Below are positions 19,907-64,000 of a stretch of DNA of 64,000 nt, piece by piece. The notes under the pieces are model-generated. The model made no database searches, was not told the DNA's origin, and saw nothing but the letters and a program-made list of their open reading frames with translations. The translations under genes and the position numbers were made by a program. The first letter of the stretch is position 1, and each line of letters starts with the position of its first letter. Source of the stretch: a virus; IMG/VR virus record IMGVR_UViG_3300028394_000057, positions 27,336 to 91,335 of that record. One strand, given 5' to 3'.

Positions 19907-20061
19907 TGGCTAATAAATTTTATACCAATGAGGCATGGCTTCGCAAAAGATTCCATGTAGATAAAAAAACTCCAGAGCAAATTGCTTTAGAGTGTGGCAC
20001 TAGCGTAGAAACAGTCTATGTTTATTTAGCCAAGTTTAAGTTAAGGAAGTCAAAAAGATGA
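19906..20061 (+). CDS. Small HTH protein
   Basis: WLRKRF...KTPEQIALECGTS..TVY..L; ATG at 19906 coupled to upstream stop. Confidence 0.6.
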   Translation: MANKFYTNEAWLRKRFHVDKKTPEQIALECGTSVETVYVYLAKFKLRKSKR

Positions 20062-27459: not shown

Positions 27460-27739
27460 AAATTGGAAAGATGAAGCCTTATGTAAAGGTGACGATGTTA
27501 ATCTATTCTTTGATACTTATGAGCAAGATGTTGAAGTCAGAAAAGAAGTAGATTCTTTATGTTCTATTTGTCCAATGGCTCGTATATGTTTTGCAGTTGG
27601 GGTATCTCAAAAATCATATGGTGTTTGGGGTGGAGTTTACTTAGATAGAGGTAAAGTTTCCAGGGAATTTAATAAGCACAAAACCAAGCAAGACTGGACA
27701 GAAACATGGCAACACCTAACAACAGATAAGGAATTCTAA
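27449..27739 (+). CDS. whiB: WhiB-family transcription factor
   Basis: W...ALC......FF...C..C.....C and YGVWGG. Confidence 0.9.
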   Translation: MPNENWKDEALCKGDDVNLFFDTYEQDVEVRKEVDSLCSICPMARICFAVGVSQKSYGVWGGVYLDRGKVSREFNKHKTKQDWTETWQHLTTDKEF

Positions 27740-41681: not shown

Positions 41682-42266
41682 GATAAATCTTACTGATATA
41701 AACAGATATCATAGTGGAGCAAAGTGGAGAATAATTGTATGTGTAATTGAGCATATCTAACTATCCTCGTAATCATTTTTGCCAAACATCCTAGCCCCCT
41801 ATGCCAAACACCCCCTATCATATTTTGTGCATTTTGTCAAGTATTTTAACGATATTGTTATAAAAAACATATCAAATATTAAATAAACAAACATAATATG
41901 TATAAAAATGTGCAAAAATTATATAGGTTCGTAATCCCATATCCGCCTATGTGTTTATACTTATACTAGGGGAAATGTGTATCAAGGGTTGTTTGTGTAC
42001 CCTGGCTCTGCCAGCCCCTTCGGGGGTATATAAAAGAGTGTTCGTAATACCCCTATAGTAAATACACCTGATATAAACTCTGGGGATTTTTTTATGTCCT
42101 TCGTAATGTCAAATAAACTTATTTTATATACATAGACTTTGGGGAAAAATATTATACCTTCGTAATGTCTATTTATCAATAGCATGGCTATCATTGTTAT
42201 GGGATTGTTATAATTTTTGCGCAAAAAAATATACCCCTGCATCTCTGCAAGGGCATATCTAATTAG

Positions 42267-42461
42267 TTAGTCGAACTTAGAATCTTGTTCAACAATGCTA
42301 TCTAGGTTTTCTACGATAGCAGGTAGGTCAGACCATAGGTAATGGTAGAAGATACTTTCTATCTCACTAGCCAATACTTCCCACTGCTTATCTGTGAATG
42401 TGCGTGAGAAGAATGTCTCTACTTCTGAACGGTGAACTGTGTAATCTACTTTATTTTCCAT
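42267..42461 (-). CDS. Hypothetical protein
   Basis: TTGACA-17-TATAAT promoter, leaderless ATG. Confidence 0.6.
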   Translation of the reverse strand: MENKVDYTVHRSEVETFFSRTFTDKQWEVLASEIESIFYHYLWSDLPAIVENLDSIVEQDSKFD

Positions 42462-42479
42462 AATACAATTATACTCCTA

Positions 42480-42746
42480 CTACTGCTGATTGTCAAGGAA
42501 GATGTCATCTAATGTTACATAACCGTTATCTGTTTGCTCTAGGCTACCCAGCAATAAATCAAAGGTCTCATTGATAAACTTAGTAGACAGGGCTGTTGGC
42601 TTTACAATCTCATTGTCTAGCAGGTATGCCAGAGGAAGCCCTAAGTCATTATAGGAAATGAAGTCAGTAAAATTCTGGTCGTTACGATAGTTCATCCATA
42701 GTTCCGCTAGGATACTACATCTATCATCAAATGATGTTGCTGTCAT
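42480..42746 (-). CDS. Hypothetical protein
   Basis: C.ILAELW..Y......DFI.YNDLGLPLAY. Confidence 0.6.
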   Translation of the reverse strand: MTATSFDDRCSILAELWMNYRNDQNFTDFISYNDLGLPLAYLLDNEIVKPTALSTKFINETFDLLLGSLEQTDNGYVTLDDIFLDNQQ

Positions 42747-42928
42747 TTTTATTTTCTCTTTCGTGTTTCATTGCTTCTAATACAATTAGTAATCTTCTAT
42801 ATGCTACATTTGATAAGGTCATTGCTAAATACCGTCCAGCAAATTCTAAATCAAATCTTAGGTCTGATATCCAATTACTAAGTATCTCAGCAAACTTTTC
42901 TTCTTTTGTTCTTGTTTGTCTTCTCATA
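42727..42928 (-). CDS. Hypothetical protein
   Basis: GGAG RBS before MRRQTRTKEEK. Confidence 0.55.
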
Positions 42929-43056
42929 TTTATACTCCAATATTCTATTATACCAAAAATGTTGGGGAAGCACAAGTAGCAATATACCGCTCATGCTTCC
43001 CCTGGTAGTCAGACACAGAAACCCCTAACTGCTCTGACCATTAGTAGGGAGTGTTC

Positions 43057-43434
43057 TCAACCCACTAAGTCGTGAAGTTTACTTATACTATCTATCTCAT
43101 ATAGAGAGTCTTGACCTTCGATGTCTATACTATAGGGGTCAGGCAGGTCATTTAGGAAGTCGTTTATGTCCTTGCTGATTTCAAGGGCATACAGTTCGTC
43201 CCTAAAGTCCCACCAGTCAGTACCGTATTCTAGTTCACTACGGAACGCTCGTATCTTTGCAGTCTCGTTGATGTTACACTTATAAAGGATTCCTGTGTAT
43301 ACATGCGTAACCGCTTCTCCATCTAATATATATAAAGCAGGATTAAGAGTGATTACATCTTCCCATTGGTTGACACCATTCTCGTCATGTCCTAAATCTA
43401 CAAACCAAACATTTATATCCCAATACTTTGTCAT
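43057..43434 (-). CDS. Acidic hypothetical protein
   Basis: ORF track; coupled chain. Confidence 0.55.
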   Translation of the reverse strand: MTKYWDINVWFVDLGHDENGVNQWEDVITLNPALYILDGEAVTHVYTGILYKCNINETAKIRAFRSELEYGTDWWDFRDELYALEISKDINDFLNDLPDPYSIDIEGQDSLYEIDSISKLHDLVG

Positions 43435-43604
43435 ACGATTCGTTGCTCCAGTTCTTCTAGGGTTTCATTATTCCAACTAAGGTTATCATTATACCGCATC
43501 TGCTGTGAGATGTCAAGCACATTGTTGATAGCGTTTGTCCAGCCTTCTTCGTACCCTGCATCGTAGTCAGGGTTGTTGTTATACTTATTAATTTTATCTT
43601 CCAT
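43431..43604 (-). CDS. Hypothetical protein with YDAGYEEG repeat
   Basis: ATG near 43604 coupled to upstream stop. Confidence 0.5.
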   Translation of the reverse strand: MEDKINKYNNNPDYDAGYEEGWTNAINNVLDISQQMRYNDNLSWNNETLEELEQRIV

Positions 43605-43975
43605 TAGTAGTTCCAATCTGTGTAGGTTCCATCGCCACCACATTGGTCGCAATCTTGGTCAGGTTCAGTCTCTTCATCATCTGGATTATAGCAGTCACAT
43701 ACGACAAACTTGCAGATGGTAATGCAAATGTCATCGCTGTCATCCCACGGTATTTCAGTAACATAATAACTAATCCTATTAGCCAAGTGATAACCTTGAA
43801 CAAGATATACACCTTCATCACCATCTAACTCAGTCCATACGGTAGAGTTAGGTTGCTCACAAACAAATAGCACTTCATCACCATAGGTCTCAAATGATGT
43901 AGTGTCATCTTTAACTAAATGGTTTTTGATAGGCTTGTACTTATTTACCCATTCTTCATAGGTCATCTCACTCAT
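43604..43975 (-). CDS. Acidic hypothetical protein with C-terminal CxxC motifs
   Basis: FETYG.E, G.H..NRI.Y, CDQCGGDG. Confidence 0.6.
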   Translation of the reverse strand: MSEMTYEEWVNKYKPIKNHLVKDDTTSFETYGDEVLFVCEQPNSTVWTELDGDEGVYLVQGYHLANRISYYVTEIPWDDSDDICITICKFVVCDCYNPDDEETEPDQDCDQCGGDGTYTDWNY

Positions 43976-44157
43976 CAGAACTCAATCTCGTAGTCATCAA
44001 ACTCAACTGTGTATGAGTTGTTGCCATCCCATACCTTTATCTCGTTGGCAAGTTCAGCCACCTTATCGTGGATGTCATTGTCATCGTTAGGGTCTTCTAT
44101 CTCAACTTCAAACTCTTGTGAATACCAAAAGCGAACTGTTGCTGTTATCTTTTCCAT
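43975..44157 (-). CDS. Very acidic small protein
   Basis: ORF track; AG-rich RBS. Confidence 0.55.
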   Translation of the reverse strand: MEKITATVRFWYSQEFEVEIEDPNDDNDIHDKVAELANEIKVWDGNNSYTVEFDDYEIEF

Positions 44158-44174
44158 AGGGTTTACTCTCTCTC

Positions 44175-44723
44175 TTAGAAGTGGAAATCTACTGGCACTA
44201 AACAGTATACACTACGATAGGCTGTCTTGTCAATACCCAGTTTTTTTCTCAGGTATTCAGTCTTTACTGTGCAGTCGCCAGTGTCAAAGAAACCACTGTC
44301 CCAGTTCCAATAGCCACGCATAATCTTCAAAGCACTTGACAGGCTAGGAATGTTGGCTTCGTAAATCTCACCAAAATCAAGGGTATCTCCATTAGAATAC
44401 TTAGTCATAACAGCATTGATAGTAGGAAAATCAAACTCAGAAAAGTATTCGTTGAACTGTGCCAACTGCTTTTGGTCAATCAAATCTAATGCTTCTAAGA
44501 ATGAACAAGCATTGTCATCATTGTAGATAAGGACAGGAACATCTTCCCACCTGCCACCAACCTGATACCAATCAGACCAGCCACCAACAAAGCCCTCTGA
44601 TGTTGCTTCGTGGTTCAGCCATTCACCTACTTCTTCCTGTGCTAAGGCTCTAAGTTCTTCGTCTGTGTATTCATCTTCTAAATCAAGTTCTAGTTCTGTT
44701 GCTAGGTATTGCATAGTATGCAT
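44175..44723 (-). CDS. Acidic hypothetical protein
   Basis: DWYQVGGRW and VDFH motifs; boxed promoter at 44767. Confidence 0.65.
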   Translation of the reverse strand: MHTMQYLATELELDLEDEYTDEELRALAQEEVGEWLNHEATSEGFVGGWSDWYQVGGRWEDVPVLIYNDDNACSFLEALDLIDQKQLAQFNEYFSEFDFPTINAVMTKYSNGDTLDFGEIYEANIPSLSSALKIMRGYWNWDSGFFDTGDCTVKTEYLRKKLGIDKTAYRSVYCLVPVDFHF

Positions 44724-44957
44724 GGGTTTACTCTTTCTCTAGGTTATATATCTATGATACAGGATACCCCTGACATTTGCAATAGTTCTGGGGAAAATGT
44801 TATGCTTTCGTAATCAACCAGGATGTTTACAGGTTTACATAATCATGGGGAAATTGTTATAGCATCGTAATACTACCCAATGTTTATTAGTTTACATAAT
44901 TATTTTCTGCGCACAAAACCAGGGCAGTCAGATTGCTCCAACCACCCTGGTCCCCTA

Positions 44958-45134
44958 TTATCCCTATATGTCAGCCAAAACATTTCTAGCAGTCTCAACA
45001 AACTCATTGAATTCGTCTTCACGCTTTAGTCTCATCTCTATTAGTTTCAATACTTCTAGAGTAGGCATTTGATTTATACCCTTGACTTTTTTGAAACCGT
45101 CAATCATGGACAAGACGATTTCTTTGTCAGTCAT
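44958..45134 (-). CDS. Hypothetical protein (58 aa, not in track)
   Basis: MTDKEIVLSMIDGFKKVK... read manually. Confidence 0.45.
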
Positions 45135-45363
45135 TTACTTCTACCACTTCTATCATTTGATAAAGGTCATTATACTTTACGCTGTTGTATAGAATTTCCA
45201 GTAGTTCGTGATGAGCATAGTGAACCATGTCTTCCATTGTTCGTGGTTCCAGAGTTTCGCCTTCTTCAAGTTCGCTTTCAAGATACTCTCGTTCATTCTC
45301 GGTGTATCCATCATCTTCAAACTCAAAGTCCATTGTGATTTGTGCTCTAAGCATTTTAGGCAT
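45127..45363 (-). CDS. Acidic hypothetical protein
   Basis: AGGAG RBS before MPKMLRAQ. Confidence 0.55.
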   Translation of the reverse strand: MPKMLRAQITMDFEFEDDGYTENEREYLESELEEGETLEPRTMEDMVHYAHHELLEILYNSVKYNDLYQMIEVVEVND

Positions 45364-45706
45364 ACTTCTTCTCCTGCTTCTCCCAGTATTCGTCCTGAGC
45401 AATCATACTATCCAAATCGCTAATGCGACCTTCAATACAAGCAATAGCAAATCTGCTCAATGCTTTTGTGTGTAGTTCGTTTTCTAGTATTGCTAGTTCT
45501 TCTCTGTGTTGTTCCAACATAGTTTTTTCCAAGTCTTCTTCTCTTTCCTTATACATAGTTAGATAAATGTTTGCTTGTTCTGCTTCCCATTCATCGTGGG
45601 TAGGGCAGTAATCTTGATTGCCTTCGCAGATGTCGCAGAATGAATGGCAGTCAAAACTACCGTGATGTTTTGGACATTCTACTCTTTCGCAATCGCAATC
45701 ACTCAT
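45356..45706 (-). CDS. Cys-rich hypothetical protein
   Basis: CDC...CPKH...DCH.FC.IC....CPTH. Confidence 0.55.
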   Translation of the reverse strand: MSDCDCERVECPKHHGSFDCHSFCDICEGNQDYCPTHDEWEAEQANIYLTMYKEREEDLEKTMLEQHREELAILENELHTKALSRFAIACIEGRISDLDSMIAQDEYWEKQEKKYA

Positions 45707-45875
45707 TATCTTCTTCTTCTTCGTCTGCTTCTAGTTCTTCAACTTCAATAGAATAAACTCCGTCATAGTGTAGGTCATCTTCCCACTTCCAACCAATCGC
45801 TTCTGCTTCTGCTTCGCTATCTGCTTCTACTTCGTTGCTGAACTCAACAATGGTCTTTACATAGTATTTTGGCAT
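45699..45875 (-). CDS. Very acidic small protein (58 aa, not in track)
   Basis: MPKYYVKTIVEFSNEVEADSEAEAE...; downstream of boxed promoter 45923. Confidence 0.6.
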   Translation of the reverse strand: MPKYYVKTIVEFSNEVEADSEAEAEAIGWKWEDDLHYDGVYSIEVEELEADEEEEDNE

Positions 45876-45932
45876 TTGTTATCTTTCTGTTAGGGGGTGT
45901 TGTGTTTCTATTATAGGGGATACCACTGACAT

Positions 45933-46241
45933 CTAGGACATCATAGACGCTTTTTCAAGCATCTCGTCATAGAGTATCTTGGAATTATCATAGGATAGTT
46001 TGTCTTCTAGGTTGCTCTTGATAGTTCTGAGCATTCGCAGATAGGACTGGAACTCAGGACCACTGGTATCGTGCCAACCACGCTCCGCACTGTCCCATAG
46101 TTGTCTCTCTAATGCTTCTATCCCCCAAGTGTAGAATTGCCTAGTCTGCCATTGTTCTAGGTCATTTCCGTCAGGGTAGATGTAAGGAGCATCTTCTTCA
46201 TCATAAACAGGGGTAAGGATAATAGTTTCGTTTTCATTCAT
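45933..46241 (-). CDS. Hypothetical protein
   Basis: Leaderless start after boxed promoter 46261. Confidence 0.6.
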   Translation of the reverse strand: MNENETIILTPVYDEEDAPYIYPDGNDLEQWQTRQFYTWGIEALERQLWDSAERGWHDTSGPEFQSYLRMLRTIKSNLEDKLSYDNSKILYDEMLEKASMMS

Positions 46242-46415
46242 AAGTCAATTATACAGACTACCACTGACAAAAGCAATAGGCTTGGGGAAATCGTAACCCT
46301 TTCGTAATCAAGGTTTTTTGTTTATATAAACTATCTAAAATTTTGCGCACCGATTTGCCCACTTTGTCAAGTAGGAAATGGTGAGCAGTTTGAAATCTTG
46401 CTCAGGATTGTTTTA

Positions 46416-47429
46416 CTATACGGAAGCCAAAACCAAGTTCATCAAACGGTTTTTCTCAGCGTTGATTACAGGGTCAAAGCCAGAAGCAGAAGCGTAAATA
46501 CTTTCGTTGTTTGTGCCACGAGCATTACGATACCAGTCTAGGCGTTCTGTTAGAGCATTCATAGCACCCCAAGCAGTTCCAGCAATGGTGTTGTTGTATG
46601 TGCCAGTGTAGATAGATTGGATTAGTTCAATCTTATCAGACCACTTCTTCATAGAACCCTTGCTGTCCTTAGTTGGCATTGGATACGCTTTTAGAACAAT
46701 GTCGTTGAATTGCTGATTTGTGATTTCAGTTTCAATCATAGACTTAGCAAGAATGTCAAACTCGTCTAGGTAGTGATTAGCCAAGCCCAACGCTTCACGA
46801 GCAACAGCAATTTTACCCTCTGCGGTTTGTGTGTGTCTAATCTTGAATGATTGCTTCAAACCCTTTTTACCTTTTAGAGAAGATAGAGCAAGGTTGAGAG
46901 TGTTAGCACATACAACACGAACAGGAGTAATAGACGCTTGGATAGCGATACTTCCATCGTGGCTTGTGTTTAGTAGCAGGTATGACTTGACAACATCAGA
47001 CACGCCATTAGGGTCAAGGATAGTTTCACGCTCTAATGCGATTGAACCGAATACTTGTCTGCCACCCTTGATTGAACCAGCAGTTTCCCAACGACCGCCA
47101 CCATCTAGCAGGTTATCACCAAAAGAAAACAAGTCTTCATTTTGTAATGGAACATAACGCTCACCAACGACACCAAGAATGTCTGTCTGCTCTGCGTTGA
47201 ATGGATTAGTTCGTGATACGAATGAGTAGTTTCTATCGCTAGTGAAACCAGCAGGAACAACAACATCTTCAAGTCTGACATTCCAGTTGTCTAGGCTTGC
47301 GAGTGATAGCATTTCTGCGGTAGAAACTTCTTCATTGAATACAGTTCCTAGATTATGCCAAGCAGGTTGGCGGAGTGAAGCAAAACTAGCCTGACCAGTT
47401 GCTTCGTTGATTTCTAATTCGTGAGCCAT
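46416..47429 (-). CDS. DUF932 / TIGR03299-like phage-plasmid protein
   Basis: MAHEL...PAWH.LG, Y.P.QN, ETAGS..GG, SHDGS, RVVCANTL, RHT, GTAWG..NA.TE; start reset to 47429 (GAAAGG RBS). Confidence 0.85.
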   Translation of the reverse strand: MAHELEINEATGQASFASLRQPAWHNLGTVFNEEVSTAEMLSLASLDNWNVRLEDVVVPAGFTSDRNYSFVSRTNPFNAEQTDILGVVGERYVPLQNEDLFSFGDNLLDGGGRWETAGSIKGGRQVFGSIALERETILDPNGVSDVVKSYLLLNTSHDGSIAIQASITPVRVVCANTLNLALSSLKGKKGLKQSFKIRHTQTAEGKIAVAREALGLANHYLDEFDILAKSMIETEITNQQFNDIVLKAYPMPTKDSKGSMKKWSDKIELIQSIYTGTYNNTIAGTAWGAMNALTERLDWYRNARGTNNESIYASASGFDPVINAEKNRLMNLVLASV

Positions 47430-47696
47430 AGGGACTACACCTTTCATTGTTGGATTTATTTGATAGTCAATTATCCCACGATTTCGGGGATTTGTCAAGT
47501 GTTTCGTAAAACAATTTTGCATTCTTTACCATTTCGTTACTTTTCGGGGCGCAGAAAAATCCCCCTGCTACTTTCGGGATTGTGTCCAGACTTCACAGGG
47601 GGATTGTAAGCAGTTTAGACACTTGCTTAGGTGTTTGGCTAACACAAGCCCTGTGATTTACCCTTACGGAACAGGGGGCTAGGGGAAGCCAATGGT

Positions 47697-48134
47697 TTAT
47701 AGCAAATCAAGAACAGAGTTGTATGTGCTTGATGTGATTGTTTCCTGAGTGGTTAGTTTTAGAAGCGATAGTGTCTTCTCCAACTTTTCCTTTTTGTCCC
47801 TGTTCTGCCAAGTGTCAGGGTCGCTAGGCTTCTCTGGCTTTGTGCCAATCTTAGCAACGATTTCCTTGCCAACTGCGATAGAAACAGAACCACGATAATC
47901 GCTGTTGATAGAGATGTTGTCTTCTTGATTACCATAGTCGCTGTAATCAACAATAGACTTTTTGTTTTTGCTAACCAAGTCAATTAGGTCTGCTGTGAAA
48001 GAAACAATCTCTTTCTTGTATGCTGAAAGCAACTTTGGATAATCTGCTTCTGCCTTAGCAATTTCTGCTAACTTGTTCTCAATCATCTCTACTACTACTG
48101 ATGTTGGGAGTTTTACGGATACGGAACGAGCCAT
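47697..48134 (-). CDS. Hypothetical early protein
   Basis: TTTACA-17-TATAAT promoter at about 48178-48205. Confidence 0.65.
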   Translation of the reverse strand: MARSVSVKLPTSVVVEMIENKLAEIAKAEADYPKLLSAYKKEIVSFTADLIDLVSKNKKSIVDYSDYGNQEDNISINSDYRGSVSIAVGKEIVAKIGTKPEKPSDPDTWQNRDKKEKLEKTLSLLKLTTQETITSSTYNSVLDLL

Positions 48135-48250
48135 AATGTTTTACTACTTTCTATTAGTGGGTTTTTGTATAATACAATTATACAGGATTTAGGGGGATTT
48201 GTAAATAGGCAGTTTAGACATTTGCCTAGATGTTATAGTTCTGTTATGAA

Positions 48251-48408
48251 CTACTTGGCAGTTGTCCAGCGTGGCTGTCCAGCAACATCAAGTTTGATAC
48301 GGACAGAGCCGTTTGCGTTCTTGATTACTTCCTGAACAGTGCCAACAACGCCAGACTTCTGGGTTGCGAACTGTGAGCCAACAGATGGAATGGTAAATGA
48401 ATTAGCCA
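48251..48408 (-). CDS. Small SH3-like early protein
   Basis: VGSQF.T.KSGVVG.V.E; TTGACT-17-TATACT promoter; start approximated at MANSF. Confidence 0.6.
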
Positions 48409-48749
48409 TTTTTTGCTTCTTTCTACTTGTAGTTTTTCTCAACTTTTGTTGATAATACAAGTATAAGGCATAATCGGGGAAAAGTCAAGGGTATTCGTAA
48501 AAGATTTTTGTATCGTTATCATTTCGTTATCAAAATCGGGGCGCAGAATTTTAGTGAGCAGTTTATACACTTGCTCAGGTGTTAGGTATGTTATTATTCA
48601 GCAGTATTACCTCAATACCCTTTACTTGCCACTGCCTATTATGTTTTCTCCTTTTATCAAACATAAAAACTTTACCCAACTTTACCGCTTGGTGCGAGAG
48701 CAGTTTCAACACTTGCTCAGGTGCTTAGGCAGAAAAGAAAGGGAACTGC

Positions 48750-49133
48750 CTAAGATGTGATGTTCCAGTCATCTAATTCCCAGTGAGAGTTGTCTAGGTA
48801 TTCTTCTGCTACTCCCAAAGGATTTTCGGTAATGCCAAAATCTTCTGCTAACTTATCAGTATCAAAACCGATAGGGACAGTAAAGGTTGCTTGAACTTTG
48901 AAAGTCAATTCCATTTCAACTTCTTCTGTTAGTGTAAAGCCAAAGATTTCTGCTATCTCTGTTGCTGTGTCAAAGTCAATCTGCGAATTGGTTAGGGCTT
49001 CTTTCAACCAGTCTTCAAGTGTTTCTGTGTTTCTGGTCATCATACCTAATGCTTGCCAAAGGTCTTTGTTTTCTGTTGTTAGTTTTTCTAGTTCTTGTTT
49101 TAGTGCTGATAATACAGGGTGGTTGCTTTCCAT
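48750..49133 (-). CDS. Acidic hypothetical protein
   Basis: Boxed promoter 49176. Confidence 0.6.
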   Translation of the reverse strand: MESNHPVLSALKQELEKLTTENKDLWQALGMMTRNTETLEDWLKEALTNSQIDFDTATEIAEIFGFTLTEEVEMELTFKVQATFTVPIGFDTDKLAEDFGITENPLGVAEEYLDNSHWELDDWNITS

Positions 49134-49190
49134 TGTTTTCTTCTTTCTTTTAGTGTATCTCTATTATAAACCTAACCACTGACATTGTGA

Positions 49191-49567
49191 TTAGTCTTCG
49201 TCTTCTTCGTCATAGTCTTCACAGGTATCTCCACAGGCAGAGAAGCAAAGTTCGCATTCGTCTTCTTCTTGTTCTGCCCCTTGTGGAATAAGTGTTGTGA
49301 AGCCATCATTAGCATCTTCGTCTTCGCCTACGCTATGGACACCCTGAATAAACTTCAAGGCACAACTTTCGGCATACCACTTTTTTAGAGTGTCAAACAT
49401 TTCTGCTGGTTTCATTTCACTTCTGGTTCTAATCTCGTCATACTGATACTCACGCATAAGTTCTACTTGCTTGTCATCCATAAGCACATAGATTTTGTGG
49501 CAGGTATCAAAAGCGATACCCTGAGCAAACTGAACTGACATCTCTACATCATCCCAATAATCTTCCA
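49191..49567 (-). CDS. Acidic hypothetical protein
   Basis: IAFDTCHKIYVLMD, W...SC.LKFI; boxed promoter 49608; start approximated at MEDYW. Confidence 0.6.
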
Positions 49568-49693
49568 TTGGTTTCCTTTCTTCTTTGTATTTCAATTATA
49601 CAGGCTACCCCTGACATTTCGGGGATATTTAGCGTGTTTCGTAAATGTGTTATGAGTTTGTTATAAAAATCTGCGCACCCCGAAGGGTAGGAA

Positions 49694-49876
49694 CTAAGCC
49701 CTAGCCTTATCCCATTCATACTGCTCAATAAAGTTCTTAGCAGATAACCAAGCACGATACATTATTTCGTCATCAGGGCTTCCCTGTATGTCCCAACGCA
49801 ATAGTCTTCCTATTGTGTGTGAGTTTCTGTCTTCTAAGTCTGCTAATACTATTTCGTATGCTTTCTGTAATTCCAT
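49694..49876 (-). CDS. Hypothetical protein
   Basis: ORF track; RBS upstream. Confidence 0.5.
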   Translation of the reverse strand: MELQKAYEIVLADLEDRNSHTIGRLLRWDIQGSPDDEIMYRAWLSAKNFIEQYEWDKARA

Positions 49877-50147
49877 TATGCTTTCCTAACTATAATTACT
49901 TCTTCACAAGTTTCACACTCTAAGGCGTAGTCTGTTGGTTTTTCCCAACTAGAATACTTTGCGATTACTATGTCGTGGTCAAAGTGTTCTGCTAAATCCA
50001 TTAGTATCCTGCTTTCTCTAAAATTGCTAATAGGGCTTCTGCTTCTTCTTCTGTTAGTTTTGCTATTGCTTCTTCGTTGATTACATTATCAAAGTTTATC
50101 ATTTGTTTCCTTTCGTTAGAGTTCTATTATATTTGCTACCACTGACA

Positions 50148-50348
50148 TTAGACTTCATCTTGCCATTTACCACAATTTTCACAAACTGCATCTCCAATAC
50201 CCATGTTCCAAATCAAAGGCTCAAAGGAACAAGAATTACATTTATGATAAGACACTCCATACAACTCCATGTCTTTTTCAGACATCTCATCCCAATAGAT
50301 TTTATGTGTTTTAGTTTCACACTCTTTACAATTTATACTAACTGACAT
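50148..50348 (-). CDS. Small zinc-finger protein
   Basis: CKEC, CNSC, CENCG. Confidence 0.55.
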   Translation of the reverse strand: MSVSINCKECETKTHKIYWDEMSEKDMELYGVSYHKCNSCSFEPLIWNMGIGDAVCENCGKWQDEV

Positions 50349-50565
50349 CACTTAGCCACTCATCACAAACTGAACAAGCCCACTCTAAGTTTTCTGCTTG
50401 TGTAAAATCGTGGTCGTTCTTCTCAAACCACTCTGCGAAACTAGGTCTGTTCCAATCAGCACAACTGTCAAGGTAGTTGTAAAAGTGTTCGTCAAAACTT
50501 TCGTTATCTACAACAACCATACCTTCGCTATCGCCATAACTTCCGTCAAATGCTACATACAACAT
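50338..50565 (-). CDS. Acidic hypothetical protein
   Basis: YVAFDGSYG; AAGGAG RBS; TTGACT-17-GATAAT promoter. Confidence 0.6.
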   Translation of the reverse strand: MLYVAFDGSYGDSEGMVVVDNESFDEHFYNYLDSCADWNRPSFAEWFEKNDHDFTQAENLEWACSVCDEWLSDVS

Positions 50566-50908
50566 AGGGGTTCTCCTTCTTTATCTTATAATCCATTATC
50601 CCAGAAAATCAGGGAAAAGTCAAGGCTATTCGTAAATGAGTTATGGGTTTGTTATCAAAATCGCTGCGCAGCCTTTCGCCTACTATTGTAGGAAAAAGAC
50701 TACTAAGATTATTAGTATTAGTGTGCCGATTATCTGTAATGTATTCATACTCAATTATCTCACGATTGTCTTAGTAAGTCAAGAGCCTTTTTGTGTTCCA
50801 TGATGTCTGCACAATAGCGACACAAATCAGTTCCTTCCCAATTTTCGTCAATACATGCAACAGGGTCATTGTCATCTTCTACATTTTGACATGCAATCCA
50901 AGCCATTT

Positions 50909-51427
50909 TTACAACTCCACTTCTTCGTCATTGTGAGTAAAGTAATCATTAGAGCAGTCAATACACATACCCAGTTCTTCAGCGTGTATGTCTTTAGACA
51001 TTAGTTCTCCACAGTTATCACAAGGCAGGGTATGAACAAAATCAAAATCAAAATAAGCACCCATTGGCTCATCGTGAGAGCCACGCCTAGCAGTTAGTTT
51101 CTTGTTTGGAATGTCAAGTGTCCAAGTGATAGTGAAATCTCCGTTGATAGTCAAAATACTATCAAGTTTATCAAGCGTAGTTTTAGCAGAGCCTTCCAAG
51201 TTTTGCCAAGTCATTCTTCTGCCCTTGATTAGAATAAAGTCATCTTCTGCAATCTCATTTAGTTTCTGCCACTCACCAATAACATAAGCGGTATCTTCTT
51301 TCTGCATCTCATAGCAATCGCCATAGCAGTATTCCATAGGCACAAACTCGCCTAGTTCTTCGTTGTAATCTTCGCAAGTGCAATCTGAAGATAGTGTTGC
51401 AATCATTACATCTAAGTTCTGTTCCAT
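50909..51427 (-). CDS. Hypothetical protein with SHDEP motif
   Basis: Start reset to 51427 (AAAGGAAA RBS after boxed promoter 51469); W....G, GDFT, SHDEPMG. Confidence 0.6.
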   Translation of the reverse strand: MEQNLDVMIATLSSDCTCEDYNEELGEFVPMEYCYGDCYEMQKEDTAYVIGEWQKLNEIAEDDFILIKGRRMTWQNLEGSAKTTLDKLDSILTINGDFTITWTLDIPNKKLTARRGSHDEPMGAYFDFDFVHTLPCDNCGELMSKDIHAEELGMCIDCSNDYFTHNDEEVEL

Positions 51428-51458
51428 TAGGGTTTCCTTTTCTTTTGATAATACTATT

Positions 51459-51572
51459 TTACTTGATACCACTGACATTATGACAATCGCAAGAGCAACA
51501 ATTACAATCACTAAAATTGTCATTACAGGTAGCGTGATAACCTAAATCACATCTAGGGGTAATGTAAATCAT
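51459..51572 (-). CDS. 37-aa Cys-rich micro-protein (not in track)
   Basis: MIYITPRCDLGYHATCNDNFSDCNCCSCDCHNVSGIK; GAAAGGA RBS after boxed promoter 51609. Confidence 0.5.
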   Translation of the reverse strand: MIYITPRCDLGYHATCNDNFSDCNCCSCDCHNVSGIK

Positions 51573-51967
51573 AGTCTTCCTTTCTTGATAATACTATTTT
51601 ACACCTAACCACTGACATTGGCGGTATTTAGGGGGAGTTTCGTATGTATCGTAACATAAGCGTTACAATCGGGTGCGCAGCCCGAAGGCTACCGTTTATA
51701 GGTAATCGAAAACATCTCCGTCAAATCTGGATGTTTCTAGTTCTTCCATTAGTTGAAAAACATCTATTTCGCCATTGTGATACTGGTCAAATAGTTCTTG
51801 GGCTTCTTCCATTTATCTCTCCTTGTTTGATAATACTATTATAGAACTAACCACTGACATTGCAGGGGTCATCACATTCAGCGTCATGTTCGTGGTCACA
51901 CACATAACAAACCATGAACTCATTTAGGTCTTCTGGGTCGTAGTCATCTAAACATTCTTTACAGGTA

Positions 51968-52267
51968 TTAAGCATTTAGCACACTTTCTACGATGTAGTC
52001 TTCTAAACCAAAATACTTTACTAAGTCAATAGCAGGAACTCCGTCTTCGCCTGTCAAATCTGGCAGGGTATTTAGAATAATAGGTTGATTAGCATTATCT
52101 CCATTTACAAAGTCAAGAGCAAATACCATTTCTTCTGCCAACTCTCTAAGGTCAATACGATTACCATAAGTAGAGCGTAAGCCCTTACCAATAAAGATTT
52201 GATATATTTGTTCTTCTAGGGGATAACTCTCAATGCCTAGTAGATTTAGTTTAGTTGATTTAGCCAT
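51968..52267 (-). CDS. Hypothetical protein
   Basis: AAGGAG RBS. Confidence 0.55.
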   Translation of the reverse strand: MAKSTKLNLLGIESYPLEEQIYQIFIGKGLRSTYGNRIDLRELAEEMVFALDFVNGDNANQPIILNTLPDLTGEDGVPAIDLVKYFGLEDYIVESVLNA

Positions 52268-52437
52268 TAGTTATACTCCTTGATAGCCTTGATGATGTTT
52301 GATTTGCGACTACCCTTGCGAGTGGCAGGAGTAGCGACTAGGTGCTTATTTAGCAACAGACTTCTAAAAAGTTCTGCCGAGTGAGCGTTGCGAGTAGCCT
52401 GTGCTACTTTATTTAGTGGTGGCTTTCTTTTCTTCAT
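52267..52437 (-). CDS. Small basic protein
   Basis: Leaderless MKKRKPP after boxed promoter 52457. Confidence 0.55.
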   Translation of the reverse strand: MKKRKPPLNKVAQATRNAHSAELFRSLLLNKHLVATPATRKGSRKSNIIKAIKEYN

Positions 52438-52716
52438 AGTCCTATTATACATTACACCACTGACATTGTGGGGATTTGGGAAACATTTCATAACTATCGT
52501 AACTCAATTGTGACCTTTCGGGTGCGCAGAAAAATTGCCACCCCGAAGGGTAGCAATCAAAACCTAAAAAGGTTTGAGTGTGTCTATTGTTCTAGACAAC
52601 TTGACGATAACATCTTTTTGGTTATCAACAATTTTCTTATACTGACTAAGCAAATAACTCTGCCAGAATAAATAACCAACTAGAATAACTCCAATAACTG
52701 CGAATACAATTTCCAT

Positions 52717-52905
52717 TTATCTCTCCCAACAAGCGTCAAAAAACTTACCAGATAAAAATCTGTCGTTGTCATTTTTGAACATCTCAGCAAACTCATTTAC
52801 TAAATCGCTAAAAATCTGCTCACCCTCTAAACCCAAACTTTCAAGAGCAGGTCTAAATGCTGAGAGTATGTCAGCAGTTTCAACATAGTCCTTGCGTGTC
52901 ATCAT
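52717..52905 (-). CDS. Hypothetical protein
   Basis: MMTRKDYV..A.IL...F..DN.RF...KF..AC motif. Confidence 0.6.
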   Translation of the reverse strand: MMTRKDYVETADILSAFRPALESLGLEGEQIFSDLVNEFAEMFKNDNDRFLSGKFFDACWER

Positions 52906-53114
52906 TAGTTATCTTCCTTACCTGCGTTGATTAGGATTGTGATTAGTTCTTGGCGTTCTTCGGTTGATAATTCCAAAGCCAGTTCTAATGCGTGGCTTGT
53001 TCCGTGTCCAGTGTGATTGCGAGTTCTGATTGTTAGATTGAACCAGTTTTCACTTCCAAAACTAAAACCGCCAAAAGTGTATCTTTCATTTTTATTTTCC
53101 ATTTTATTTTCCAT
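52905..53114 (-). CDS. Hypothetical protein
   Basis: Boxed promoter 53145. Confidence 0.55.
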   Translation of the reverse strand: MENKMENKNERYTFGGFSFGSENWFNLTIRTRNHTGHGTSHALELALELSTEERQELITILINAGKEDN

Positions 53115-53154
53115 TTCTTCTTGATGTTATTATTATACAACCTACCACTGACAT

Positions 53155-53331
53155 TTAGAGTTGGTCAGCAGTATAGTCTTTTAGTTCTTCACGCCAATCG
53201 TCAGGGTCTTCACCCAGATAGTTCAGGGTATCCAAGTTTAGTGGCATTACGCCATCATAGTCTTTACAGGTATAGCAGATGTGGTCATCTATGCTAAATA
53301 GGGAGTAGCAAAATACGCAGATGTTTTTCAT
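53155..53331 (-). CDS. Zinc-finger micro-protein (58 aa, not in track)
   Basis: MKNICVFC...ICYTCKDYDGVM. Confidence 0.6.
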   Translation of the reverse strand: MKNICVFCYSLFSIDDHICYTCKDYDGVMPLNLDTLNYLGEDPDDWREELKDYTADQL

Positions 53332-53748
53332 TTATTTCTCATTTCTTTTCTTGATAATACTATTATACCCCCTACCACCGACATTTGGCAATAGGCAATT
53401 TTCGGGGCGCAGGTCTGCGCACCCCGAAGGGTAATGAGTTAGCAATCTCCGAAGAGTTCACTCTCAACAGTAGACCAGTCATCTTCATACTCGTTCAGGT
53501 CTTGGTCGCCCTCATAGTCATCAGACTCGTAGTTATCGCTGTATAGTAGCATAGTTGCCTTTCTTGGTTGATAGAATAATTATACTTTGAACCACTGACA
53601 TCGGGGAAAAACCAGGAGAAACGTAATTACCTTCGTAAATCGTTTCGGGGCGCAGGTTAGCGCAGAAAGTTGCGCAGAAATTTTGGTGCAATTATTTATT
53701 GTATAAAATAAATAACTACAACCAAAACTAAAACTACACAAATAAAAA

Positions 53749-53949
53749 TCACTCTTCATCTTCCTGCTCTTGCAAGAAATCAATATATTCATCAACAGAA
53801 ATTTGATACATGATTGGGTCGCAGTTTGCAAGAATTTGAGATGCATAAAAATCTGAGTATCCAATTTTGTAAGGTGGATAAAGTTCGTCTAGCATTTCGT
53901 CATGCATGGCTTCTAGTTCTTCTTGGCTGTGCTGTTCTCTAATGTCCAT
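53749..53949 (-). CDS. Acidic hypothetical protein
   Basis: DEMLDE.Y...KIG...F.AS.IL..CDPI.Y. Confidence 0.6.
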   Translation of the reverse strand: MDIREQHSQEELEAMHDEMLDELYPPYKIGYSDFYASQILANCDPIMYQISVDEYIDFLQEQEDEE

Positions 53950-54034
53950 TAGTTTTGCTCCTCTGCTTGATAGTTGAAAAGATAATCTAAAAATTCTTCT
54001 AGTGCTTGACTTTGTAGTGTGTGAAAACTTAGCA

Positions 54035-54235
54035 TTAGTTTTGCTCCTTGTTTTTGTCTAGTTGGTAAAGTGAACCTAGCGTATAGGCTTGGTCAAATAT
54101 TTGTCTAAAGTTTACAACTTGATAAATGTCAATGCCAGCATCATCAGCATAAGATTTTACCTTATTCCAATAAGTCCAAAAGTCTTGCTCACGCTTGGCG
54201 TAAAACTTTTCCATATTATCCATTTTATTTTCCAT
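54035..54235 (-). CDS. Hypothetical protein
   Basis: Boxed promoter 54263. Confidence 0.5.
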   Translation of the reverse strand: MENKMDNMEKFYAKREQDFWTYWNKVKSYADDAGIDIYQVVNFRQIFDQAYTLGSLYQLDKNKEQN

Positions 54236-54750
54236 TTCTTTAGATTTCAATTATACAACTAACCACTGACATTTATCCTAGCGGACACGCTTGGCTTCAG
54301 GGTGTTCAATTAGAAATAACATTAGGTCTAATTGGTGAATAGCAGAAATAACGGTTTCTCCGTTGCTAGTGTATTCAAATAGGGTGTATCTCTTGCTAGG
54401 GTTTTTGTGTAATCTCATTAGTTATCTTTCTTTTTAGTTAGTTCAATTATAGCGGATACCACTGACATCTTACCAGCGGTAAGCGTGTTCGTGTTCATTC
54501 ACTAACTTTTCAAACTCTTCGCTTGTAGCGAACTCAATTACAGTTCCACACTTGGCACATTCGGCAGTATCTTTACTCAATTTATTTCTCATTTCTTTTT
54601 ATCTACTTACAGTATAAACCTAACCACTGACATTTAGGCGGACAAACACACATTTTTATGCCTTTATAACAATAGTGTTATAAATGTTTTTCGGGCGTGT
54701 CGTTCGGGGCGCAGAAAATTTTGGGTAGTTAGCCCAAAACTTTTTTACTT

Positions 54751-54969
54751 TTACTTTTTGCGTGAGCGAATTATAAATACTAACGCTAAAATAAATGCTA
54801 AGATAAAAAACTGAACGCTTACAAATCCCCAAATACCAGACTGAACTTTATCAGTAGCGTCATCAGTAAATACTGATAAATAATTTAGAGTGTCAGAGAT
54901 GAAGAAAGAAAAGATACCAGCAATCAACGCTGACATTACAATTCCAATTTTTAGAAAGTTTTTTTCCAT
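54751..54969 (-). CDS. Small two-TM membrane protein
   Basis: Two hydrophobic helices, basic tail. Confidence 0.55.
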   Translation of the reverse strand: MEKNFLKIGIVMSALIAGIFSFFISDTLNYLSVFTDDATDKVQSGIWGFVSVQFFILAFILALVFIIRSRKK

Positions 54970-55285
54970 TAGTTATTTTCCTTTTTGTCAGTTTTGATTT
55001 GAGAGATAAAGTCTTCTCTCATTGACTTTTGGATTTCTGCCAAAGCAATTTTCCAGTCTTCCATTATTTATTCTCCATCTTATTTACAATTTGAGCAATC
55101 AACGCTTTTTGCTTTTGAGTTAGTTGTCCAAAACATAGACCATAAGCATAGGCAACAGGATTTTCACCAGCAACGCCATCTTTTAGTCTTAGTTCGTTCA
55201 TTAGTCTAAAAGTGTCAAAGTCTTTATCTAACATTTATTTTCCTATTCTTTTCTTACTTACAATTATACAGGATACCACTGACAT

Positions 55286-55444
55286 TTATTCAGCAGTTTC
55301 CAATTCATCAGCATACATTTCAGCAATAAAGTCATACTCTTTTACTGCCTTGCTGATTTCCATTAGACCATCATACTCTTTACAAGTAGGGCAGATGTAA
55401 GCCCAAGTTTTAGTTCCGTCATAGACACAGATAATTCCAACCAT
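55286..55444 (-). CDS. Zinc-finger-like micro-protein (52 aa, not in track)
   Basis: MVGIICVYD...ICPTCKEYDGLM; similar to 53155-53331. Confidence 0.55.
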   Translation of the reverse strand: MVGIICVYDGTKTWAYICPTCKEYDGLMEISKAVKEYDFIAEMYADELETAE

Positions 55445-55642
55445 TTTTTTTATTTCCTATTCTTTTTGTAGATTATTATTTAGTTATGCTTTTTAGTTTT
55501 GCGAACATTGCCATAAGTTCATCAAACTCACTTGCGAGCATTGTGTCGCTTTCAGCGATAGCCATTAGTTCTTTGTATCTTGCTTTGATTTCGTAGTTGG
55601 TCATTTGTTAGTCCTTTCTTTGACTACTATTACACTACCAGC

Positions 55643-55871
55643 GACCACTGACATTTAGGGGATGTTTAGGGGTGTGTTGCTATTTCGTTATCGAACTGTT
55701 ATTTTTTGCCTAGTAGATACTTTACAAGGTTCTTTTCAGCAGTAGTTAGGGGGATACCTGCTCTGGCATACTTAGCAAGCATTATGGTTAGTTCTGTCTT
55801 TTTATCTTTCATAGTATTACTATACACTAGACCACTGACATTTAGGGGATGTTTAGGGGTGTGTTGCTATT
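55643..55871. repeat. 42-bp exact direct repeat flanking a one-gene cassette
   Basis: GACCACTGACATTTAGGGGATGTTTAGGGGTGTGTTGCTATT at 55643-55684 and 55830-55871. Confidence 0.9.
55699..55812 (-). CDS. 37-aa basic micro-protein (not in track)
   Basis: Leaderless MKDKKTELTIMLAKYARAGIPLT... Confidence 0.5.
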   Translation of the reverse strand: MKDKKTELTIMLAKYARAGIPLTTAEKNLVKYLLGKK

Positions 55872-56176
55872 ATGTTATCTATTTGTTATACTTGGGGGCG
55901 CAGCCCGAAGGCTAGACCCTAGTAGTCAGAGTCATCAGCAAACCAATCATCACCGCCTATGTATGGCGAGTAAGCCACACCTGTAACCTCATCACGCCCA
56001 CACTTGTGGTCTTTGCTGAATGGAAGAGAAACCCAGCCCTCGCAAGAGTCGCAGAAAATGTGCTTCATAGTTTTTACCTTTCGTTATAAGATAACCTTAG
56101 CAGAACTAACATACATTGTCAATAGCAACACACCTATCGTTATCATCTTGTTACATATCGGGGGGCGCAGAAAAAT

Positions 56177-56251
56177 TGGGGTGTCTAGAGAGAATTGAAC
56201 TCTCATTGCTTAGACCACAACTAAGCGTTCTACCATTGAACTATAGACACC
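56177..56251 (-). tRNA. tRNA-His(GTG) with encoded G-1 and CCA
   Basis: G-GTGTCTA / TAGACAC-C-CCA; CTTAG-TTGTGGT-CTAAG anticodon arm; GTTCAATTC T loop. Confidence 0.9.
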
Positions 56252-56277
56252 ATATTTTATTTAGTATTGTTATTGCG

Positions 56278-56386
56278 TGGTCTAAGTGAGTTACGCTCTC
56301 ACACTCTTACAATCTAGTAGGTGCTTATCTGTTTTACCAGTGTAGCGTTCCTATCGCTGTTGTCGCTCTCTATGAGCCATTAGACC
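56278..56386 (-). ncRNA. tRNA-like RNA with expanded anticodon region
   Basis: GGTCTAA/TTAGACC-A acceptor, GCTC/GAGC D stem, GTGAG-N7-CTCAC T-like arm. Confidence 0.55.
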
Positions 56387-56507
56387 TTATTTAGTTATCA
56401 ACTTTTATTTCTTATAGTATTACTATACACCTAACCACTGACATTTGACGCACCAACACACCTTTATTACATTTCGTTATCAATTAGTTATAATTGGGGG
56501 CGCAAAG

Positions 56508-56585
56508 GGTAGCGTGTAGGTACAAATGTATTTAACAAAGGGTAGCGTGTACCCTCTGTGTGCTCACTATAAGTGGTAGCGTGTA
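56508..56585. repeat. Three GGTAGCGTGTA direct repeats
   Basis: At 56508, 56541, 56575 (33-34 bp period). Confidence 0.8.
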
Positions 56586-56679
56586 CCCTACATATCATGT
56601 ATCATACACATTAGCAAAATATTCAGATTTTGTTAAATATGATTTTAAAATATTTTTCAGATTTTGGCGGTATGTATGT

Positions 56680-56904
56680 TTACTGTCTTTTGACAAAGTA
56701 TGAACCATAACTATCGTGTTTAACATACCAGTATGATTTACATTTGTTGCATTGCCAATCTTGTTTTGGATGAAAGTATTGTACATATGGTACTTTGCAG
56801 TGGTGTATTTTGTTTTCTGTGTCTCTAAATTTGATTTGGTGATGTAGATAAGCAAATATGCCTATAAATATTAATATAGATAACGATATGATAACGATTT
56901 CCAT
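56680..56904 (-). CDS. Small membrane-anchored Zn-ribbon protein
   Basis: N-terminal TM, HHC..P...WQCNKC. Confidence 0.5.
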   Translation of the reverse strand: MEIVIISLSILIFIGIFAYLHHQIKFRDTENKIHHCKVPYVQYFHPKQDWQCNKCKSYWYVKHDSYGSYFVKRQ

Positions 56905-57086
56905 TATGGTAACCTAATTTCTGGGGTATTGCGAAGCAACCCATGCTTTATCAGCCACCAGTTAATAAGTTTATACGACACTTTACTCTGATTGGCTATA
57001 TCCTTTGATGTCATCTTGGCTGCTATGCATGCTTCAAGATATTCTTTTGATTCGTAATGTTTGATGTACGGAACTTTTTCTTCCAT
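56904..57086 (-). CDS. Small HTH protein
   Basis: Y.SKEYL......MTSKDIA....VS...I..WL.KHGL; resembles 19906-20061. Confidence 0.55.
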   Translation of the reverse strand: MEEKVPYIKHYESKEYLEACIAAKMTSKDIANQSKVSYKLINWWLIKHGLLRNTPEIRLP

Positions 57087-57304
57087 AAGTCTCTCTCTTT
57101 CGGTAGATTTATAGTATATCATATTTTGGGGGTATCTGTGTTAGGAAGCATAGGTTCTAATCGCTCTATGGGGCATTTAAACCCCTATTTGACCTATCTG
57201 GCAACTTTGTTGCATACTGGGAGATATGAGGGTTTGGTGTCTCACATTTTTACCGTTTTAAAAAACTCAAAACACTCAAAAGATAGTGTATAATTATTTA
57301 TATT

Positions 57305-57598
57305 ATGACAATTACAGATTGGGCAGGTTTAACACTAACCGCATTATCTATCATCGCTATTATTATTGGCGGAATCAAATGGTTCATTACCGCAGAAATT
57401 AAAGTCCTATCAACCGAACTTAAAAATAATTTATCAGAACTCAAGCCTAATGGTGGGTCATCTATGAAAGACCAGGTATCACGACTAGAGGAAAAGTCTC
57501 ATAAATTAGAAGATAAAATCGACAACCTTTATAACGTTCTTATAAACGAAGGTGTCAAAACTAACAAAACTAAAAAATCAGAAAATAACGAACTTTGA
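57305..57598 (+). CDS. Membrane protein with coiled coil
   Basis: TM helix; ELKPNGGSSMKDQV.RLE. Confidence 0.65.
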   Translation: MTITDWAGLTLTALSIIAIIIGGIKWFITAEIKVLSTELKNNLSELKPNGGSSMKDQVSRLEEKSHKLEDKIDNLYNVLINEGVKTNKTKKSENNEL

Positions 57599-57823
57599 TT
57601 ATTATTATATAATATATAAACTATTAAGTAAATTATTATATTAATATATAGATATAGCCCTAAACCTTTATAGTTTAGAGGGTATCACACTTTTTGTGAT
57701 TTGTCAAATGAAAATAAAAATCCCTACAAAATGATATAATTTATCATATAGAGCCAGTGTCTGATACTCTCTCTCATACCCACTTCAGGCACTGGTTCTT
57801 TATTTATAGTGTATAATGTTTAT

Positions 57824-63583: not shown

Positions 63584-64000
63584 ATGTCAACAACCATGCA
63601 GCAAAAAAGGGGAGTAGCCACCGACTGGACTACAAACAATCCCATTTTGCTTGCTGGTGAGATAGGTTTTGAAACTGACACCAATAAGTTTAAAATTGGT
63701 AATGGTTCTACTGCATGGAATAGTCTTAGTTATATTACCGTCACTGGTCCTACAGGACCAACAGGACCAACAGGTGCTACTGGTGCAGCCTCAACTGTCA
63801 CTGGTCCTACTGGTGCTACTGGTCCTACAGGACCAACAGGGTCTGCAAGCACAGTAACTGGTCCTACAGGACCAACAGGGTCTGCAAGCACAGTAACTGG
63901 TCCTACAGGACCAACAGGTGCTACTGGTTCTGCTTCTACAGTTACAGGACCAACTGGTCCTACAGGACCAACAGGGTCTGCAAGCACAGTTACTGGTCCT
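63584..64000 (+). CDS. Collagen-like fibre protein (runs off window; not in ORF track)
   Basis: [13 protein letters not shown]...[22 protein letters not shown]...W..L.Y head domain followed by GPT/GAT triplets interrupted by ASTV. Confidence 0.85.

Follow-up and report, generated by a model that had tools for sequence, protein, structure and literature searches.

Minus-strand array of box-headed gene cassettes

The sequence analysed here is a 64,000-nt window of the virus record IMGVR_UViG_3300028394_000057, and all coordinates are window positions. The record describes an uncultured phage from freshwater metagenomes (91,335 bp, 36.5% GC, complete by CheckV). Its minus-strand arm carries 20 copies of a short box, AATGTCAGTGG, each followed at a fixed distance by a -10-like hexamer and by a small cassette of genes. 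Judging from sequence and spacing, the box is the upstream half of a promoter type known from actinobacterial hosts, the PafBC-type (RecA-NDp) promoter, and the units that it heads are exchanged between related phages.

A search of the window for AATGTCAGTGG-N7-TATAAT with at most three mismatches returned 20 matches, every one of them on the minus strand (44754-56445), whereas dinucleotide-preserving shuffles, used as the chance control, averaged 0.45 matches and did not exceed 2. The rest of the 91,335-bp genome contained no extra copy with at most one core mismatch and a -10 hexamer after it. Within the core, positions 1-4 (T, G, T, C) and position 6 (G) are identical in all 20 copies, position 5 is A in 19, and GG at positions 8-9 and the T that follows are invariant. 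The spacer between box and hexamer is exactly 7 nt in every copy, and the TAnnnT frame is kept throughout: TATAAT occurs 13 times, TATAGT and TAAAAT twice each, and TATACT, TATCAT and TAGTGT once each, with TG directly before the hexamer in most copies. No TTGACA-like consensus is conserved upstream of the 20 boxes, where a single copy (53391) scores as TTGCCA. The box itself lies at -29 to -20, where a -35 element would be. An earlier sequence-only reading of this DNA had described same-strand copies with a fixed spacer, variant hexamers and no conserved TTGACA, and these counts bear it out. Its proposal that the box replaces the -35 and serves an activator also agrees with the sequence and spacing of a known activator-dependent class, described below.

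An open reading frame (ORF) starts downstream of 19 of the 20 copies, at 6 nt past the hexamer in three cases and at 14-34 nt in 16, the latter with a GAAAGG-type ribosome site. About 45 tiny genes without assigned function are contained in these 19 units. The remaining copy (56444) heads tRNA-His and a tRNA-like stretch; the claim that each copy heads micro-ORFs therefore holds for 19 units and fails for this one. Stop codons touch or overlap the box at 45933, 50148, 53155 and 55286, as had been noted before. A unit consists of a promoter, often preceded by a hairpin, a short leader with or without the GAAAGG ribosome site, and one to three tiny genes. The promoter-leader part of about 60 nt is alike between units, and a clear hairpin is found upstream of some promoters only. 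The 20 promoters, counted from the outermost, are as follows.

56422-56445, minus: promoter 1, outermost, hexamer TATAGT; heads tRNA-His (56177-56250) and the tRNA-like stretch and lacks an ORF start close by
55819-55842, minus: promoter 2, TATAGT; leaderless, ATG 55812 at 6 nt past the hexamer, 37-aa ORF
55632-55655, minus: promoter 3, TAGTGT (weakest -10); ORFs 55604-55476 and 55444-55286
55263-55286, minus: promoter 4; ORFs 55234-55064, 55064-54969 and 54969-54751; chimera of two adjacent promoters of the relative L037
54611-54634, minus: promoter 5, TATACT; ORF 54592-54470
54446-54469, minus: promoter 6; ORF 54418-54278; 196-nt one-gene cassette, not in L037
54250-54273, minus: promoter 7; ORFs 54235/54223-54035, 54035-53949 and 53949-53749
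53579-53602, minus: promoter 8; ORF 53552-53439; chimeric relative to L037
53362-53385, minus: promoter 9, core ATGTCGGTGG; ORF 53331-53155; GC-rich hairpin 17-43 nt upstream
53132-53155, minus: promoter 10; ORFs 53114/53102-52905, 52905-52717 and 52716-52564
52444-52467, minus: promoter 11; leaderless, ATG 52437 at 6 nt past the hexamer, 56-aa ORF
52267-51968 and 51975-51847, minus: later ORFs of promoter 11
51838-51861, minus: promoter 12; ORF 51812-51696
51596-51619, minus: promoter 13, TAAAAT; ORF 51572-51459
51456-51479, minus: promoter 14, TAAAAT; ORFs 51427-50909 (172 aa) and 50906-50760
50126-50149, minus: promoter 15; ORFs 50102-50001, 50001-49876 and 49876-49694
49595-49618, minus: promoter 16, core ATGTCAGGGG; ORF 49568-49191; upstream scaffold in common with canonical promoter 47498
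49163-49186, minus: promoter 17; ORF 49133-48750
46248-46271, minus: promoter 18, core TTGTCAGTGG; leaderless, ATG 46241 at 6 nt past the hexamer, 102-aa ORF
45910-45933, minus: promoter 19; ORFs 45875-45699, 45706-45356 and 45363-45127
44754-44777, minus: promoter 20, core ATGTCAGGGG, TATCAT; ORF 44723-44175 (182 aa)

Identity of the box and the host of the phage

The consensus of PafBC promoters is tGTCgg(N10)tA(N3)T, in which the 5' part, at -23 to -28, is termed the "-26 element" and the 3' part is the SigA -10, with no -35 (PMC8635444). RecA-NDp is regarded as the same motif, and both span Actinobacteria (PMC8223512). The phage element consists of TGTCAG, then TGG plus 7 nt (10 nt together), then TATAAT. 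It contains the -26 element (all 20 copies have TGTC and a G at position 6, with A or G between them at position 5), the 10-nt gap from tGTCgg to tAnnnT in all 20 window copies, and a SigA -10 (TAnnnT in 20/20) without a -35 consensus. What had been taken for a non-canonical box of an unknown kind matches, on these grounds, an established host promoter type.

In a scan of bacterial genomes, the exact pattern gave mostly single matches at about chance level in unrelated phyla; the informative matches came from Actinobacteria, from the phage-like sequence L214 and from a few loci with two or three copies. In Mycobacterium and other actinobacterial genomes, the exact 23-nt pattern is situated 7 nt upstream of leaderless DUF222/HNH genes, and at such sites in high-GC Actinobacteria the actinobacterial LexA box CGAAC-N4-GTTCG overlaps or comes after it. 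The LexA box and the leaderless DUF222/HNH genes that follow the pattern therefore indicate a RecA-NDp promoter. The recA gene of a 70%-GC actinobacterium has ATGTCAGTGG-N7-TAGGGT, with this 10-mer as its core, 25 nt upstream, and all five recA genes from small class Actinomycetes genomes have tTGTCGGnG(G/C)-N7-TAnnnT beside a LexA box. The pattern TGTCRGTG-N8-TAnnnT was found 15 times in one Mycobacterium and 21 times in an actinobacterial metagenome-assembled genome (MAG), against 0 in the reversed control of each. Across 65 sampled class Actinomycetes genomes the count was 465 against 20, or 425 against 20 in the 58 genomes left without seven unpublished ones (G311, G340, G334, G347, G336, G328 and G319), which entered into no other result.

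Phage and host promoters have the same -26 element with its invariant GTC, the 10-nt gap to the SigA tAnnnT and no -35 (PMC8635444, PMC11804915, PMC8223512), and an actinobacterial setting, probable for the phage, and frequent leaderless starts, there predicted from the start codons, are also common to both. The phage array differs in that it places 20 such promoters within 11.7 kb, ahead of genes of unassigned function and not repair genes. It also shows A at core position 5, an extended GTGGT, a near-consensus TATAAT and no LexA boxes beyond the chance level in the window. In L037, a close relative, a LexA-box look-alike (CGAAC-N4-GTTCG) is present in the early arm at about 10400-10600. L214 (CAZCDW010000001.1, 85 kb, 45% GC, from a MAG labelled Bifidobacterium) contains eight co-oriented copies of ATGTCNGTGG-N7-TATAAT within 8 kb, and all four bases occur at core position 5.

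The phage encodes a WhiB-like protein (listed below), which marks an actinobacterial host and has itself no link to the box. Its DnaE polymerase is nearest to those of Streptomyces phages (55% identity). Together with the freshwater source, these features make an actinobacterial host likely. Array sequences gave no match to cultured phages by megablast. A group of genomes of about 1 Mb (L247-L251), of the same class as one pattern-matching genome, was also considered. Their recA regions are at 32-34% GC, with a LexA box and TTGTC upstream of recA at an ambiguous distance from the -10 (TTTAAT at N10 or TAATAT at N12), and a WYL protein was found in four of the five. Genomes of this type are probably not the hosts, and nothing was drawn from them.

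Conservation and start-codon register in related phages

The exact pattern was found in at least 119 stretches of IMG/VR contigs. With a relaxed pattern, which allows one mismatch in the 10-nt core and any TAnnnT hexamer, up to 19 copies per locus occurred among the matches listed, always co-oriented and on contigs of 36-41% GC. The matrix derived from 473 unique sites of the relatives is the same as that of the window. The first ORF starts after the hexamers of 517 sites of the relatives form a spike at 6-7 nt, with 52 sites, and a broad second peak at 20-37 nt past the hexamer; three of the 20 window copies (promoters 55841, 52466 and 46270) have their start at exactly 6 nt. Leaderless mRNAs are common in Actinobacteria. 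Since start codons at 6-7 nt past the hexamer coincide with the expected transcription start site, these genes appear to give leaderless mRNAs with the hexamer acting as a -10, which supports, indirectly but independently, a function of the array elements as promoters.

Exchange of cassettes at the promoter-leader module

Homology blocks of at least 150 nt between the window arm and related contigs begin preferentially at the box. Their 5' ends are located within -6 to +3 of its first base at 11 of 46 distinct positions, compared with 1.6% for random positions, or 15 times chance. The 3' ends of the blocks are mostly gene ends. L037 is collinear with the window over 3.6 kb with three clean one-cassette differences, and the cassette order is permuted in two other relatives, L050 and L109. 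Promoter 4 (55285) has its box, spacer and hexamer in common with one L037 promoter and its leader and gene in common with the next, corresponding to a 199-nt indel. Promoter 8 (53601) resembles L037 promoter 12744 up to the ribosome site AAGAAAGG and then continues with the gene behind L037 promoter 13037, which amounts to a 293-nt one-cassette indel. The 196-nt window cassette at 54468 is not in L037. The 187-nt one-gene unit of promoter 2 is flanked by copies of a 78-nt promoter repeat, 42 nt of which form a perfect core. Promoter-to-promoter joints, such as 53367 to 55645 and 54241 to 56431, were present in contigs from another lake data set; these contigs represent related phages, not the same strain, and give comparative evidence only. 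A near-identical population (run X3) showed no cassette joints, and its contigs break at the repeated promoters.

Crossovers were located throughout the module, and the recombining homology would therefore extend beyond the 11-nt box to the whole promoter-leader-ribosome-site module (about 60 nt). The idea that the box serves as homology for cassettes is retained with respect to gain, loss and re-ordering in register with the modules, and is extended with respect to the homology itself. Recombination within the module is supported by these comparisons and would add, remove and re-order cassettes among related phages. The closest described parallel is provided by the PeSL cassettes of T4-type phages, with the same small repeated promoter modules, some hairpins, tiny non-essential genes and similar in-register indels and re-ordering in a plastic region (PMC2839356). 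PeSL promoters are sigma-70-like, whereas the phage array is PafBC-type and has a clear hairpin in some units only.

Canonical promoters and other elements of the arm

A second set of promoters with ordinary -35 and -10 elements was identified on the same strand. These and the remaining features are listed here.

42151-50623, minus: span with canonical SigA-type -35/-10 promoters, on the same strand as the boxes
43516-43488 and 42496-42468, minus: canonical TTGACA-17-TATAAT promoters, perfect (12/12)
50623-50595, 48488-48460, 48205-48177, 47498-47470, 44233-44204 and 42179-42151, minus: further canonical promoters
46416-47522, minus: predicted DUF932 protein, driven by canonical promoter 47498
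55625-55889, minus: 78-nt promoter and upstream repeat (family D8), two copies, 85% identical
27464-27637, plus: WhiB-like phage gene (Pfam Whib, E 3e-12)

The two perfect and six other canonical promoters confirm the earlier report of such promoters nearby. They are interspersed among the PafBC-type promoters and form no separate block, so the two promoter classes proposed before are both present. Three of the canonical promoters have an upstream scaffold (TTTACGAA ... CCCC) in common with box promoters, and canonical promoter 47498 is 83% identical to box promoter 49617 over 30 nt (repeat families D10 and D12). One promoter class may have been converted into the other, as suggested by the likeness of the upstream 30 nt (47470-47510 and 49595-49645). 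A two-class expression programme is plausible from this arrangement. When 30 arm products were compared with Pfam and/or PHROGs, one of the 30, the DUF932 protein, matched a family.

Several repeated elements accompany the promoters. TTACGAA has 22 minus-strand and 2 plus-strand copies in the window, 12 of them within 42047-57057; the arm copies typically lie 30-40 nt upstream of PafBC-type and canonical promoters alike and may represent a second regulator site or an UP-like element. GC hairpins with a TTCG loop, followed by (T)GCGCA(G/C), are found between cassettes at 49684, 51686, 53428 and 55909, and also at 52549 (minus strand), at 40-110 nt upstream of boxes; they are probably terminators or RNA-end elements. 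A 29-nt element (family D4, TAAGCAGTTTAGACACTTGCTTAGG-like) occurs in six copies behind mid-arm genes (46382-48725 and 51969-51997) and is a possible pseudoknot. Between the minus-strand arm and the plus-strand genes there is a very AT-rich divergent gap (57200-57800), in which a canonical-like promoter (57632-57604) would drive three ORFs upstream of the first box. Both contig ends (window 63584-64000 and the genome start) fall within a collagen-like Gly-Pro-Thr repeat gene, which makes a break in the assembly a more probable origin of the "linear" ends than true termini.

Candidate readers of the box

The array promoters are probably read by host RNA polymerase (RNAP) carrying SigA together with host PafBC. 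In the mechanism termed "sigma adaptation", PafB (R46/R50) reads GTC and PafC contacts sigma region 4 (PMC8635444). PafBC is activated by single-stranded DNA (ssDNA) on its WYL domains and joins only RNAP that is already on such a promoter (PMC11804915). Applied to the phage, housekeeping actinobacterial RNAP alone would be unable to use these promoters, and the host PafBC heterodimer, bound to ssDNA via its WYL domains, would insert between the DNA and sigma region 4. PafB would read GTC at about -27 to -25, and transcription would start 6-7 nt past the hexamer. We infer from this model that the array depends on PafBC and that its genes would fire when infection, DNA cutting or replication yields ssDNA; a phage without its own factor would in this manner plug about 45 small accessory genes into the host ssDNA alarm. 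The second gene set on the same strand would run on its ordinary -35/-10 promoters.

The whole phage genome contained no match to WYL, HTH_11 (the PafB/PafC DNA-binding type) or sigma region 2, and the host factors are therefore the most likely reader. The earlier candidates, namely a phage WhiB or helix-turn-helix (HTH) protein or host WhiA (GACAC), were rejected, as the core and spacing match the PafBC consensus exactly and do not correspond to WhiA or WhiB sites.

Several points weigh against reading the array as a set of PafBC-dependent cassette promoters. Compared with the weak host hexamers, those of the phage come near the consensus (13 of 20 are TATAAT, many with TG before them), which makes some PafBC-independent transcription plausible. 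A is preferred at core position 5 in the phage and G in most hosts. The motif was not found in BillNye and Paradiddles, the cultured phages with the closest DnaE, and therefore no laboratory system is at hand. The early timing of the array genes is suggested by gene size and position only. As to the exchange of cassettes, many mosaic junctions are located at plain gene boundaries that have no box, and junctions at promoters could also result from selection for units that are self-sufficient.

An activator unrelated to PafBC, made by the phage or delivered with the virion, might read the box in the manner of T4 MotA/AsiA, the likeness to the host motif then being convergent or partly exploited. 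Such an activator is unlikely, even though the approximately 45 array products without a family match could hide a small DNA-binding protein, the first arm genes (57122-56595) precede the first box and follow a canonical-like promoter, and a weak, sub-threshold sigma-r4-like HTH occurs at 19957-20034, far from the array. In T4 middle promoters ("sigma appropriation", with a MotA box at -30 and AsiA), the box likewise replaces the -35 before a normal -10, and the factor bridges DNA and sigma region 4 as PafBC does; the PafBC study itself makes the comparison with MotA (PMC8635444). However, the T4 factors are phage-encoded and remodel sigma; in the present genome the search gave no phage factor, and the motif is one that belongs to the host. 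The absence of WYL, HTH_11 and sigma region 2 matches was the evidence obtained on a MotA/AsiA-type factor, the MotA and AsiA families themselves not having been searched for. In core and spacing the phage element does not differ from the PafBC consensus or from host recA promoters, and phages with widely differing array genes retain the box at hundreds of sites; as the box stays constant while gene content varies, a constant host reader fits better.

Slightly less probable than a phage activator is that the hexamers are self-sufficient, TG-extended -10-only promoters and that the box is an operator, negative or for timing, or a PafBC decoy that blunts host repair. Actinobacterial SigA often needs no -35, and the near-consensus TATAAT with TG just upstream in most copies would suit such promoters. 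A decoy could draw on 20 sites per genome multiplied by the phage copy number, which would exceed the host sites (15 in one Mycobacterium), but decoy activity is compatible with activation. A 7-nt spacer fixed in all 20 copies and in the sites of the relatives suits a promoter element and not an operator, and neither a repressor nor, among integrases, a tyrosine integrase was found in the phage genome. The stoperators of cluster A mycobacteriophages are likewise many co-oriented, asymmetric sites of 13-14 nt with TGTCA and GTGG-like words. These are repressor sites of temperate phages without a fixed distance to a -10, in contrast to the constant spacing and missing integrase here, and the box was not assigned to them. 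It is very improbable that the box is mainly the recombination site of an integron-like, site-specific cassette system with a secondary likeness to promoters. Cassettes are indeed gained, lost and permuted with junctions at the box, but besides the missing integrase and the junctions at gene boundaries without a box, crossovers occur anywhere in the module of about 60 nt (one is at the ribosome site AAGAAAGG), and their spread therefore fits general homologous recombination.

Implications for freshwater phages

PafBC "sigma adaptation" has so far been known only as a bacterial DNA-damage response, and no paper linking RecA-NDp or PafBC to phage promoters was found in the literature on either. 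The new observations here are the in-register chimeric promoters, the leaderless spike of start codons and the scaffold common to canonical and PafBC-type promoters. As a tentative extension of the host-read model, more doubtful than the model itself, the host ssDNA alarm could act as a sensor of infection or attack that switches on small, shuffled counter-defence or takeover genes at the moment of need. Cutting or resection of incoming phage DNA, or breakdown of host DNA, would then activate PafBC. The many strong sites on replicating phage DNA would also titrate PafBC from host repair, and the promoter-leader modules would serve in addition as a substrate for recombination, by which the gene library stays fluid across a very large family of lake phages.

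If reading by host PafBC is correct, the array would represent a new viral takeover of host transcription without a factor of the phage's own, in abundant freshwater actinophages, and the expression of phage genes would be coupled to the sensing of ssDNA. Strong PafBC-type promoters would also become available for direct tests in mycobacteria, corynebacteria and Streptomyces. The in-register exchange of cassettes illustrates how regulatory modules can drive the replacement of accessory genes in phages that do not belong to the T4 group.

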